Positions 15,106 through 17,765 of a stretch of 17,765 nucleotides of DNA are shown here, piece after piece. The stretch's first letter is position 1; every line of letters begins with the position of its first letter. The position numbers and the translations under genes were made by a program. Below the pieces are notes generated by a model. It ran no database searches. It had not been told where the DNA came from and saw only the letters and a list, made by a program, of their open reading frames with translations. The stretch lies in assembly GCA_000002435.2 (NCBI GenBank), contig AACB03000033.1. One strand, given 5' to 3'. This DNA is from Giardia intestinalis. Taxonomy: Eukaryota.

Positions 15106-16962
15106 GTGATATGCACAGCAGCCAGTGATGGAGTGTGCACTGCTTGTAAGACAGCTAACGGCCTGTTCAAGAACCCAGTTACACCTCAGAAGCCTGGTAG
15201 TGAGTGCATCCTCTGTCATGATGTCAATGGGGCAGATGGATATACAGGGGTGGCTAACTGCGCACAGTGTACCAAGTCAGACAGTAGTCCAGGACCTGCC
15301 ACGTGTACAGAGTGCCAAGATGGATACTACAAGAACTCTCAGACATGTGTCAAATGTAATGAAGCTTGTCTGACCTGCGATGGAAGTGGTCAGAATCATT
15401 GTACATCGTGCCCAGAGGGGAAGTACCTGAAGAGTAATCAATGTGTACAAGATACTGGATGCGATGGAAACACTTATGCTGACCCGGAGTCGGGAACATG
15501 CAAGGCATGTAGTACGATACACGCAGAGTGCACGGCATGCTCCTTCGACAAGGCCACGGGGAAGCCGAAGTGCACTAACTGCGGGACCAATAAGACCCCC
15601 AGGACGGCCCTCGACGGGACATCGACCTGCGTGGCGAAGACGCTTGAAGGATGCGAGGGCGCTGACGAGGCCTTATTTATGAAGGAGGACAAAACGTGTG
15701 CTCTTTGTAGTGATGTGACAGATTCAACTCTTGGTAACGAAGGAAAGGCCAACTGCAAGACATGTACGAAAACAGGAAGTGACAATCCAACCTGCTCAGC
15801 CTGTCTCGATGGATACTTCTTTGATAGTGGTACTAGTACATGTACAGACAAGTGTGGTGATAACTGTGCCACATGCTCTGTTGCTGGTGATCCAAATAAG
15901 TGTGAAACCTGCAAGACTGGATACTTCTTAGTAACTACTACAGATCAACAGGGGAAGAAGTGCGTCCCATGCGATAGCGTAGACGATAAGGGTCGCGAAG
16001 GCTGCAGTGTCTGCTCTAACAACGGTGCTTTCAAGTGCACTGACTGTAAGCCTAACTATCGCAAGGAGGGCAGTACTGGCTCTGTCACATGCACCAAGAT
16101 CTGTGAAGATGATACTGCCTGTGGAGGAACTTCTGGTGCCTGCGATGCAATAGTGATTGATGATAAGGGTGTAGAGCATCATTATTGCTCATACTGTGGA
16201 GAAGCTAATACGTATCCTATAGATGGGAAGTGTAATAGTGCTAAAGCAAATAATCAATGTGATCAAGGTGTATGTACACAATGCACTAACAACTACTTCT
16301 TGTATATGGGAGGTTGTTACAAGGTTGATACAGTACCTGGACAACATATGTGCAAGACAGCAGCCAACGGTGTCTGTACTGCTGTTAATGCCAACAATAG
16401 GTACTTCATAGTCCCTGGGGCAACCAATCAGAATCAGTCTGTATTAGCATGTAGCAACTCCCTTGGCACACTAGTAGGCACTGGTGATACCTCTAAGGCA
16501 TACGTTGGGGTACTCAACTGCTCAGCATGCACGGCCCCAACAGCTCCATCTGAGACTGGTATGACTGCTGCTGTGTGTACAGCGTGTACCAACAACAACA
16601 AGCCCAACCTGGCTGGGAGCGGGTGCTTCGCATGTACCGTTGACGGATGCTCGCACTGTGGAGCAGGCGGTAAGTGCGAGGCCTGTACCAGTAAAGACCA
16701 GAGGCCGAACACAGACGGAACGAAGTGCATCGCCTGCAATATCGACGGGTGCGTCAGGTGCAGCGAGGAGAACAAGTGCGGCCAGTGTGGGGACGACTAC
16801 AGGCTGGAGGGTGAGGCGTGCGTGTCCACCAAGCCCAGCGGGGGCAACAGAAGCGGCCTCAGTACTGGTGCCATAGCAGGGATCTCCGTCGCTGTCATCG
16901 CTGTCGTGGGGGGCCTCGTGGGCTTCCTCTGCTGGTGGTTCGTGTGCAGGGGGAAGGCGTGA
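15106..16962 (+). CDS. vsp: VSP-family protein, unit 9 (type A, 618 aa from GTG; start undefined).
   Basis: Matches unit 3 except for short patches. Sits at a ~15.13 kb offset from unit 1. Confidence 0.87.
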   Translation: MICTAASDGVCTACKTANGLFKNPVTPQKPGSECILCHDVNGADGYTGVANCAQCTKSDSSPGPATCTECQDGYYKNSQTCVKCNEACLTCDGSGQNHCTSCPEGKYLKSNQCVQDTGCDGNTYADPESGTCKACSTIHAECTACSFDKATGKPKCTNCGTNKTPRTALDGTSTCVAKTLEGCEGADEALFMKEDKTCALCSDVTDSTLGNEGKANCKTCTKTGSDNPTCSACLDGYFFDSGTSTCTDKCGDNCATCSVAGDPNKCETCKTGYFLVTTTDQQGKKCVPCDSVDDKGREGCSVCSNNGAFKCTDCKPNYRKEGSTGSVTCTKICEDDTACGGTSGACDAIVIDDKGVEHHYCSYCGEANTYPIDGKCNSAKANNQCDQGVCTQCTNNYFLYMGGCYKVDTVPGQHMCKTAANGVCTAVNANNRYFIVPGATNQNQSVLACSNSLGTLVGTGDTSKAYVGVLNCSACTAPTAPSETGMTAAVCTACTNNNKPNLAGSGCFACTVDGCSHCGAGGKCEACTSKDQRPNTDGTKCIACNIDGCVRCSEENKCGQCGDDYRLEGEACVSTKPSGGNRSGLSTGAIAGISVAVIAVVGGLVGFLCWWFVCRGKA

Positions 16963-17019
16963 CTTGGGTAGTGAATGCTGTACAATGGGTGATAGTGTGT
17001 GATAGTATGATAGTGGAGT
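16963..17019 (+). repeat. Inter-unit spacer. PolyA signal 16970-16976. About 3 GTGATAG-like repeats.
   Basis: Copy of the 1835-1891 spacer. TAG 17011-17013, and the frame opens at 17014. Confidence 0.8.
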
Positions 17020-17765
17020 GTGATATGCACACAGGCCAGTAATGGAGTATGCACTGCTTGTAATACAGATAGTCAGTACATATTCCAGAATGGGCAGACA
17101 AGGTGACCCCTGGTGGGGAGTGCATCCTCTGTCATGATGCCACAGGAGCGAATGAGAACAAGGGAGTGGCCAACTGTCTCAAGTGCACGGCACCTGGTGG
17201 CAATACAGGAGCGGCCACGTGCACCGAGTGTCAAGATGGGTACTACATGGACTCTCAGGCATGTACCAAATGTGATGGTACTTGTCTGACCTGTGAGACA
17301 TCGGCGACCCAGTGTACCTCTTGTAAGGGAAATACGTTCCTGAAGGATAATGCATGCGTGAATAGTGATGGATGCACTGGAAACACTTATGCTGACCCTA
17401 TGACAATGACATGCAAGGAGTCTGGTATAGCAGATTGCACCGCGTGTGAGTACAACACGACTGTCAGCAAGCCCCAGTGCACCGCCTGTAACAATAAGAA
17501 GGTGAAGACAGAGCTGGATGGGACAACCACTTGCGTCGATGATGCTGGGTGCGCAACAGATAACGTCGACGGATCCCACTTTCTGAGTGATGATAGCACC
17601 AAGTGCATATTATGCAGTGATACAACAACAGGAACAGAAGCAAACGACAAGGGATTGCTAATTGTAAAACGTGTAAGAAGAACGGAGCCAAGCCGACTGC
17701 TCAGCTTGCCTCGACGGATACTTTGGGTTCTGATACATGCACAGCTTGCGGTGCCAACTGTGCTA
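17020..17765 (+). pseudogene. vsp: VSP-family unit 10 (type B copy of unit 2), 3'-truncated by the window end and disrupted by four 1-nt indels relative to unit 2.
   Basis: Aligns to 1892-2650. A G is missing in the G-run ~17092-17094, which gives a stop at 17104-17106 after 28 codons. A G is missing at ~17651-17653. A C is missing at ~17697. An extra G sits at ~17725-17727. Net frame change is not restored. Confidence 0.7.

Follow-up and report, generated by a model that had tools for sequence, protein, structure and literature searches.

The window, by which we mean the whole 17,765-nt stretch of DNA analysed here, is a head-to-tail array of start-less pseudogenes of variant-specific surface proteins (VSPs, surface antigens), an already known feature of the genome of the gut parasite Giardia, and the A-B pair of units at its beginning recurs at its end. 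This recurrence is probably a real duplication, and its one-nucleotide differences probably arose from sequencing errors near the ends of the contig, which would be the ordinary case. It is a "linear array" of pseudo-VSPs from Giardia intestinalis assemblage A, either WB or a near relative. The stretch is very probably an entire small long-read contig, and the ends of the window are presumably the contig ends.

Ten VSP cassettes of ~1.8-1.9 kb each were found, all on the plus strand and with 51-72 nt from each stop to the next open frame. The window contains these cassettes with their spacers and nothing else, and it holds no RNA genes according to Rfam (gathering thresholds) and ARAGORN. Cassettes and spacers are arranged as follows:

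1..1834, plus strand: unit 1, A-type pseudo-VSP, 5' end cut by the window start
1886..3718, plus strand: unit 2, B-type pseudo-VSP, open frame of 610 codons with a CRGKA end and no in-frame ATG before codon 79
3791..5653, plus strand: unit 3, A-type pseudo-VSP, 620 codons
5705..7579, plus strand: unit 4, C-type pseudo-VSP, 624 codons
7641..9380, plus strand: unit 5, D-type pseudo-VSP, 579 codons
9432..11195, plus strand: unit 6, E-type pseudo-VSP, 587 codons
11257..13110, plus strand: unit 7 ("F"), chimera of a D head (about 11257-11688) and an A tail (about 11551-13110)
13162..15036, plus strand: unit 8, second C-type copy
15100..16962, plus strand: unit 9, A-type pseudo-VSP, 620 codons, intact, bearing a private substitution patch
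17014..17765, plus strand: unit 10, B-type copy cut by the window end
1835-1885, 3719-3790, 5654-5704, 7580-7640 and 9381-9431, plus strand: first five of the nine inter-unit spacers
11196-11256, 13111-13161, 15037-15099 and 16963-17013, plus strand: last four inter-unit spacers

The identity matrix (97.9-99.7% among units 1, 3 and 9, 99.3% between units 4 and 8, 99.5% between units 2 and 10, and 50-70% for the other pairs) supports the order A B A C D E F C / A B that had been proposed in the preliminary description, except that F is not a separate type. Unit 7 carries the head of unit 5 (D), 100% identical up to about alignment column 400, on an A tail.

Units 2, 4 and 9, the three tested, matched Pfam family PF03302 with 128.8-134.8 bits (E about 1e-39), the curated cut-off being 31.4 bits. 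Each unit has 26-32 CXXC motifs. The 3' end is complete in nine units, and in all of these it reads ...GLVGFLCWWF(V/I)CRGKA and then stops. The best protein match was XP_001705784.1 of G. lamblia ATCC 50803, which is 99.5% identical to unit 3 (425/427 aa). Retained in each cassette are the CXXC-rich ectodomain, the transmembrane helix, the CRGKA tail and a downstream polyadenylation-type signal, AGTGAAT, which lies 7 nt after the stop codon in 9/9 cases (0.06 matches to the whole stop-plus-signal pattern are expected by chance). Every spacer has a conserved CTTGGGTAGTGAATGCTGTACAATG followed by two to five decamers of the GGTGATAG type, which place stops in all frames.

Compared with a complete VSP, each cassette lacks the initial ~107 codons and with them the ATG, signal peptide and initiator element, and the alignment of a unit to the full-length VSP P0003 begins at residue 108 of that protein. 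The open frames start directly behind the spacer stops, at WS(V/E)ICT..., and the first in-frame ATG is found at codon 49-194 across units. The initiator YAATGTT (PyAATGTT), which about 72% of the vsp genes outside arrays have at their start codon (Adam 2010, BMC Genomics 11:424), had no match in the window, where 2.7 were expected by chance. The units have neither the ATG with an N-terminal signal peptide nor the initiator element of a functional VSP. They do have the features of an array, namely at least two VSP units placed head to tail, very short intergenic regions (about 60 bp), members without a proper start codon, signal peptide or Inr, and a conserved 3' end. A bacterial reading was considered and rejected, because the frames open earlier than the GTG and ATG "starts", directly after the spacer stops, so that these starts are artefacts of calling table-11 ORFs on eukaryotic sequence. 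From the literature, the cassettes are likely to be silent, that is, unexpressed as such; silence has been reported for the G. muris arrays and hypothesised for WB. A dN/dS of 0.17-0.32 and eight uninterrupted frames of 579-624 codons count against the pseudogene-array explanation, as they do not look like decaying junk.

Arrays of this kind are already known, essentially as published for Giardia WB. WB linear arrays have a mean spacer of 60 bp and downstream members without Inr, occur mostly on short contigs and contain closely related pairs (Adam 2010, BMC Genomics 11:424). They have also been described in the long-read assembly, typically on small unplaced contigs (Xu 2020, Sci Data 7:38), and the unplaced scaffolds contain VSP pseudogenes only (Rodriguez-Walker 2022, bioRxiv 10.1101/2022.03.07.483299). 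We found no essential difference between these arrays and the window, which shares with them the head-to-tail units, the spacers of about 60 bp, the conserved CRGKA 3' ends, the downstream members without Inr, proper start codon or signal peptide, the placement on short or unplaced contigs, the related pairs and the signs of recombination, besides one unit with 99.5% identity to a WB protein. All units of the window are of the downstream type, with no promoter-bearing head gene. The published WB accounts describe related pairs and multi-gene duplications, but mention no explicit eight-unit, 15.1-kb period. The arrays of Giardia muris are likewise made of tandem signal-peptide-less VSP pseudogenes, which arose by duplication, are transcriptionally silent and exchange sequence with intact VSPs, but they have a different, species-specific tail (GCRGK); these arrays are telomere-adjacent (Xu 2020, Microb Genom 6:mgen000402). 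Exact-product look-ups for units 4 and 5 and for P0001, P0003, P0005 and P0015 returned no record of a second copy of the array, and the look-up for P0002 identified a VSP of isolate DH (AHGT01000044, L001) that stands alone, not in an array. A scan with six peptide patterns found no VSP relatives in metagenome contigs.

Self-BLASTN paired positions 1-2639 with 15130-17765. This alignment has 2640 columns and an identity of 99.28%, the differences being 14 mismatches and 5 gaps. The two copies are:

1..2639, plus strand: A-B copy 1, comprising unit 1, the spacer and the first 748 nt of unit 2; begins at the first base of the window
15130..17765, plus strand: A-B copy 2, comprising unit 9 from its 31st base, the spacer and the truncated unit 10; ends at the last base of the window

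The match thus spans the window from its first base to its last, as a dovetail overlap between prefix and suffix, and chance is no issue for a 99.3% match across 2.6 kb. In agreement with the preliminary description, the stops (1834 and 16962) and the ORF starts (1892 and 17020) are both 15128 nt apart, with an alignment offset of 15128-15129 nt, and the spacers that it had equated, 1835-1891 and 16963-17019, are identical at 57/57 positions. Only 1.17 periods (17765/15128) are visible, whereas a tandem higher-order repeat is defined by at least two complete periods in direct succession. Identity between periods is 99.3%, compared with 50-70% for most unit pairs, but within one period A recurs at 99.7% (units 1 and 3) and C at 99.3% (units 4 and 8). 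A block made of an A tail and C is also present twice, 7477 nt apart (3601-8069 versus 11078-15540). The window thus holds several nested duplications of near-identical sequence, of which the A-B repeat is one.

All the differences that had been listed between the two A-B copies are present, namely an extra G in unit 1, four indels in unit 10 and the "VLNCSACTAPTAP" patch in unit 9. Their proposed division into substitution patches and homopolymer indels held for a clustered patch and for four of the five indels, and we read the indels as consensus errors. These five 1-nt indels are the extra G at 23 in unit 1 and those at 17091, 17650, 17696 and 17725 in unit 10. Of the four in unit 10, three lie in G runs and one in CC, and their density rises towards the window end. 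Four of the five change the length of a homopolymer. All are located no more than 23 nt from the 5' end or 675 nt from the 3' end, a placement with a probability of (699/2639)^5, about 0.001, under uniform spread, and in 5/5 cases the frame is lost in the end copy and kept in the internal copy. No 1-nt indels were found in roughly 15 kb of internal coding sequence, including the twin units 4 and 8, which are separated by clustered substitutions only, with 0 coding indels. PacBio homopolymer frameshifts do occur in the WB assembly (Xu 2020, Sci Data 7:38). Because the indels are confined to the ends and mostly homopolymeric, and because the internal copy is always intact, we interpret them as long-read consensus errors at poorly covered contig ends and not as divergence; the extra G at 23, which shifts the frame of unit 1, is probably such an error. 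More generally, where a small long-read contig ends, its 1-nt indels should not be counted as biological divergence.

Fourteen substitutions also separate the copies, one of them at 16890 and the other 13 in a single 133-nt tract:

16408..16540, plus strand: substitution patch of unit 9, homologous to 1280-1412 in unit 1; 13 substitutions, no indel, frame kept

Eleven substitutions fall within 38 nt, where uniform spread predicts about 0.2. The "GTACTCAACTG" (VLNC) part of the patch is B-like, two sites are common to unit 7 and two are private. The internal C copies, units 4 and 8, differ in the same patchy manner as the A copies. As the patch is clustered, preserves the frame and is partly B-like, and as the C paralogues differ likewise, we consider it a real difference, and it looks like the product of gene conversion. 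The B unit in the window was examined as a simple donor and accounts for part of the patch only; the two sites common to unit 7 and the two private ones suggest either a donor outside the window or several events. Unit 1 does not have the patch and matches unit 3 at the patch sites, yet it is followed by B, as unit 9 is, so that a junction between patch-less A and B is present in the data. Additional heterogeneity of the A-type copies in WB is indicated by XP_001705784.1, from the 2007 assembly, which bears a further B-like micro-patch (ENP for SNS) that none of the A copies in the window has.

The clustered substitutions imply that at least two distinct A-B copies exist, and the 14 substitutions suggest that these may occupy separate places on one chromosome. 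The earlier proposal of a real duplication that has since diverged is favoured in so far as polishing would not remove these substitutions, whereas its counting of the unit 1 frameshift and the unit 10 indels as divergence is not supported. A multi-unit segment containing A was probably duplicated inside the array, which either added the second period of a 15.1-kb, eight-unit block or copied the A-B pair more locally, and the copy in unit 9 would later have gained its conversion patch of ~100 nt. The repeated A-B pair would then be one product of the process by which cassettes recombine.

Long-read assemblers yield contigs with self-overlapping ends from circular or tandemly repeated templates, and a perfect dovetail overlap is also what an assembler is expected to produce on a circular path or a collapsed tandem repeat. 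Sequence alone does not separate a true tandem eight-unit repeat from a wrapped or collapsed contig. We nevertheless consider it rather doubtful that the two ends represent one locus, or one and the same consensus position in a 15.1-kb tandem block of several copies that the assembler failed to unroll, with the patch reflecting heterogeneity of alleles, cells or collapsed copies sampled differently at the two ends. In its favour, the prefix and the suffix overlap exactly up to both window ends, the A-B spacers are identical, and the first informative sites of unit 1 (21, 22 and 27) are u9-like. Indels concentrated at the ends are typical of self-overlapping contigs and are expected where reads are split between two images of one locus. 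In addition, duplications above about 20 kb exceed read-length resolution, and allelic variation is raised around VSPs (Xu 2020, Sci Data 7:38). Against it, the ends are parted by 13 clustered, frame-preserving and partly paralogue-derived substitutions that consensus error does not explain, so that they are not identical apart from such errors. Moreover, reads running past the 3' end from unit 9 would land on units 1, 2 and 3 and should have imposed the patch on unit 1 if there were one version only. Giardia is tetraploid, and the substitutions could be allelic, or could be differences between cells or collapsed copies, although the reported allelic heterozygosity of WB is 0.03%, compared with 0.53% between the A-B copies.

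It seems quite improbable that noisy long reads were joined across different A copies, which are 99.2-99.7% identical over 1.8 kb, making the eight-unit period a chimera of arrays or of array parts. Unit 1 is nearly the same as unit 3 (3 substitutions in 1811 nt) and closer to it than to unit 9, and four A-type tails occur within 17.8 kb, which would facilitate such a join. XP_001705783.1 (P0048), perhaps adjacent to XP_001705784.1 on the 2007 contig, does not exceed 62% identity with any of the units, which may mean that an A-type unit lies in another context; as an old-assembly neighbour, this protein provides no adjacency information for the same reason. The read N50 of about 12.7 kb, however, spans five to six units, each A copy has distinguishing flanks, and the internal junctions all show clean, frame-intact units. 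Even less credible, in our view, is an extrachromosomal 15.1-kb circle of eight cassettes that recombination between A units would have cut out of a chromosomal array, and whose assembly would have given a contig with overlapping ends. Such a circle would be compatible with the dovetail overlap and with the assumed origin of a small leftover WB contig from reads unmapped to the five chromosome scaffolds, but the ends are not identical, the window holds only VSP cassettes and spacers, and assembly gaps already explain the presence of arrays on unplaced contigs. The contig is also unlikely to be the collapsed image of a longer satellite-like repeat, in which many tandem 15.1-kb blocks of eight cassettes would be homogenised by unequal crossing-over in a WB assembly gap. 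If this were true, the ~208 annotated pseudo-VSPs would substantially understate the size and the dynamics of the silent VSP archive, the blocks of 98-100% identity to full-length VSP genes would mark ongoing donation to expressible genes, and a highly reiterated 15.1-kb block would change estimates of reservoir size and make assembly gaps easier to fill. Before a self-overlapping contig made of near-identical gene-family units is called circular, tandem or duplicated, it needs checking at the level of reads.

Besides the duplication that we favour for the A-B pair, the window offers a clean example of shuffling among the silent VSP cassettes of Giardia. In a mosaic painting of the units, blocks of 100% identity abut blocks of 50-70% identity at sharp junctions. 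Apart from unit 7, the head of unit 6 is that of units 4 and 8 (195/195 nt identical to unit 4, spacer included), and the tail of unit 2 is an A tail. An analogy can be drawn with the silent VSG gene and pseudogene arrays of Trypanosoma brucei, where antigen cassettes without promoters, most of them pseudogenes, form a large tandem archive whose segments can pass into expressed genes through segmental gene conversion; both the protein family and the organism are unrelated. Switching of Giardia VSPs, in turn, is regarded as epigenetic or post-transcriptional, and donation from arrays during switching is not known in Giardia. Blocks of 84-312 aa with an identity of at least 98% link the cassettes to four full-length WB VSPs that bear signal peptides, and to one signal-peptide-bearing protein annotated as High cysteine membrane protein. 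Such blocks in full-length VSP genes were seen for four of the five cassette types. This sharing fits the published idea that the arrays may serve as a reservoir for new surface antigens. A 179-aa block of unit 2 is 98% identical to the full-length WB VSP KAE8305807.1. The last 312 aa of unit 4 are identical at 310/312 positions to KAE8304683.1, and a 177-aa block of unit 5 at 176/177 positions to KAE8301208.1, both also full-length WB VSPs. Unit 6 matches VSP S7 (AAN52102.1) at 428/429 aa and KAE8303325.1 at 155/157 aa.

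Self-comparison of the window gave a 99.28%-identical alignment of positions 1-2639 to 15130-17765, containing 14 mismatches and five single-base gaps and spanning the window's first base through its last. The preliminary description had proposed that, among ten units, an A-B pair recurs at an offset of about 15.13 kb with the same spacer. Both claims were confirmed: the stops at 1834 and 16962 and the next ORF starts at 1892 and 17020 each lie 15128 nt apart, and the 57-nt spacers after the two stops are identical. The unit order it gave, A B A C D E F C followed by A B, agrees with a unit-by-unit identity matrix except that "F" is no type of its own, unit 7 being a chimera of a D head and an A tail.

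Two classes of difference separate the A-B copies, 1-nt indels and substitutions. All 14 substitutions fall in 1280-1762, away from the ends, and 11 of them lie inside 38 nt (1375-1412), against an expected 0.2. The resulting patch in unit 9 (16408-16540, homologous to 1280-1412 in unit 1) preserves the frame (VDGCSACTAPAAP becoming VLNCSACTAPTAP), and its core, GTACTCAACTG, is exactly the B-type sequence; two patch sites are common to unit 7 and two are private to unit 9. The internal duplicates show the same patchy kind of difference. Judging by this pattern, the patch appears to be a signature of short-tract gene conversion, not a sequencing error, and its earlier reading as a real difference between the copies is upheld.

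The five 1-nt indels, at positions 23, 17091, 17650, 17696 and 17725, behave otherwise. The last four lie 675, 116, 70 and 41 nt from the 3' end; if indels were spread uniformly over the 2639-nt overlap, the chance of all five falling in the end zones would be (699/2639)^5, or about 0.001. Homopolymer length differs at four of the five (GGGG/GGG twice, CC/C and GG/GGG), and in every case the frame is broken in the copy nearer the window end, the internal copy (unit 9 or unit 2) being intact. No frame-breaking 1-nt indel was found in the eight internal units (579-624 codons each), and the near-identical internal pair of units 4 and 8 differs by 21 substitutions and no coding indels. PacBio homopolymer frameshifts have been reported in the WB assembly (Xu 2020). 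We conclude that the five indels, previously taken as divergence (a frameshift in unit 1 and four indels in unit 10), reflect consensus mistakes where read coverage of the contig ends was poor, and that the window probably represents a whole contig.

Given the patch, the underlying DNA must hold two versions of "A then B". The dovetail geometry of the overlap would equally be expected from a circular path or a collapsed tandem repeat. If only the patch-bearing version existed, reads past the contig's 3' end would have been placed on units 1-2-3, imposing the patch there, whereas unit 1 lacks it and matches unit 3 at that point (only three substitutions between these units in 1811 nt). Nevertheless, the spacer and B unit that come after unit 1 are the same as those after unit 9, and the first informative sites of unit 1 (21, 22 and 27) are unit 9-like. 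The two versions could be allelic in a tetraploid, but the reported heterozygosity is 0.03% against the 0.53% seen here. A mis-join across A copies is conceivable, as these are at least 99.2% identical. On balance, the sequence makes it fairly probable that the two A-B copies are physically distinct. The proposed higher-order duplication is thereby favoured as to two distinct copies, although the window displays only 1.17 periods. The one further point of some value is the less likely possibility that the 15.1-kb block is present in many copies, which current assemblies would have merged into one.

Several duplications are nested in the window, the A-B repeat among them. An A tail followed by C appears twice, 7477 nt apart (units 3-4 and 7-8), the head of unit 6 with its spacer is identical to the unit 4 head at 195 of 195 positions, the unit 2 tail is an A tail, and units 5 and 6 share a block of 100% identity. 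In mosaic painting, blocks of 100% identity adjoin blocks of 50-70%, a pattern indicative of repeated rounds of gene conversion and of in-register unequal crossing-over. Four of the five cassette types also carry long blocks at least 98% identical to full-length, signal-peptide-bearing chromosomal VSPs of WB:

Blocks shared with full-length VSPs (+ strand)
6623-7558 (unit 4) and 14080-14970 (unit 8): C, last 312 aa, 310/312 aa identical to KAE8304683.1
2690-3226 (unit 2): B block, 175/179 aa identical to KAE8305807.1
8373-8903 (unit 5): D block, 176/177 aa identical to KAE8301208.1
9528-9998 (unit 6): E block, 155/157 aa identical to KAE8303325.1

A further match of B, at 128/129 aa, is to KAE8305264.1, which is annotated as High cysteine membrane protein Group 1. 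Flanking regions are only about 50% identical, as are the parts upstream in C, and the edges of the blocks appear to be sharply defined points of recombination between the presumably silent array and genes that can be expressed. The A-B finding is largely explained by array dynamics and contig-end errors: an A-containing multi-unit segment may have been duplicated by unequal crossing-over between A units, with the conversion tract in unit 9 arising later.

All units are Giardia variant-specific surface protein (VSP) sequences. Pfam PF03302 matched units 2, 4 and 9, the three compared with it, at E about 1e-39. Every unit carries 26-32 CXXC motifs together with a C-terminal hydrophobic segment, and the ...CRGKA tail ahead of the stop is invariant. 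Unit 3 is identical at 425/427 residues to the nearest database protein, XP_001705784.1 of G. lamblia ATCC 50803 (WB); the remaining strong matches were Giardia VSPs only. These matches place the source in G. intestinalis assemblage A, as WB or a close relative of it. Start signals are missing. Every frame opens directly 3' of the spacer stop codons, at "WS(V/E)ICT...", with the first in-frame ATG 49-194 codons in; the units contain no signal peptide, and the VSP initiator element YAATGTT has no match anywhere in the window. Compared with the complete WB VSP KAE8304683.1, a unit aligns only from residue 108, just past the first "FLFMGGCY...PGSE" motif. The 3' signal is retained, AGTGAAT lying 7 nt past the stop codon in 9/9 cases (0.06 matches expected by chance for the whole stop-plus-signal pattern). 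GTG starts offered by the ORF tool were rejected as artefacts of bacterial ORF calling.

The units are pseudo-VSP cassettes in a "linear array", in agreement with published descriptions. The locus is of a known kind and probably corresponds to an unplaced contig that has already been deposited. Such arrays have a mean spacer of 60 bp, downstream members without Inr and related pairs, lie mostly on short contigs, and are hypothesised to hold non-expressed recombination cassettes (Adam et al. 2010); unplaced scaffolds hold VSP pseudogenes only (Rodriguez-Walker et al. 2022). G. muris has similar silent arrays that swap sequence with intact VSPs. From this literature, the cassettes would be silent, and a sequence reservoir for VSP diversification or the remains of one.

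All eight internal cassettes lack a start codon yet have uninterrupted frames of 579-624 codons (1886-16962), and divergent unit pairs show dN/dS of 0.17-0.32 (dS about 0.9-2.2), unlike long-dead pseudogenes. Such ratios imply that the differences between units either accumulated under constraint on the protein or came in from functional genes, and together with the frames they are compatible with selection on coding capacity or frequent import. Each cassette starts with residues (ICT.A..G.CTAC....LFKNP) homologous to a segment inside the same cassette (15100-15180 vs 16260-16400; likewise in every unit), which follows the "YFLYMGGCY...PG..MC" motif about 400 aa in (second HSP, E=2e-14). In full-length VSPs, the position immediately after the first copy of this motif corresponds exactly to the cassette 5' boundary; recombination may occur preferentially at the motif.

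The 2007 WB protein XP_001705784.1 resembles unit 3 but has ACENPLG in place of the ACSNSLG common to all A-type copies in the window (5099-5240, unit 3). ENP is the B-type state and is absent from all four A-type tails in the window, which implies that A-type copies are heterogeneous in the isolate, a further point in favour of two distinct A-B copies; the protein represents either a further A-type copy outside the window or a chimeric Sanger consensus. A/B micro-conversions seem to be concentrated, as at a hotspot, in the 120 nt around this site and the unit 9 patch. The E cassette (unit 6, 9576-11195) matches "variant-specific surface protein S7" (AAN52102.1) at 428/429 over the first 429 residues and diverges in the C-terminal 110, which makes this cloned vsp entry a mosaic relative of the start-less cassette, starting at its internal Met. 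Minus-strand ORFs of up to 369 aa lie opposite the cassettes (1343-2452, 6942-7859, 14494-15219 and others), and GC skew is positive all along the + strand; both are probably by-products of Cys/Gly/Thr-rich codon composition, not genes.

Each spacer consists of a conserved 25-mer and then 2-5 GGTGATAG-type decamers, which put stops in all frames and differ in copy number from junction to junction:

Inter-unit spacers (+ strand)
1835-1885
3719-3790
5654-5704
7580-7640
9381-9431
11196-11256
13111-13161
15037-15099
16963-17013

In other WB arrays the same spacer sequence is open and annotated as protein ("MLYSDSDSAMWCGGDSDS...", in the database proteins we labelled P0004, P0110 and P0125) and is followed by LLFMGGCYNKDAHPGSE. 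The window is missing LLFMGGCYNKDAHPGSE, which points to its units being a further-truncated version of that WB array junction.
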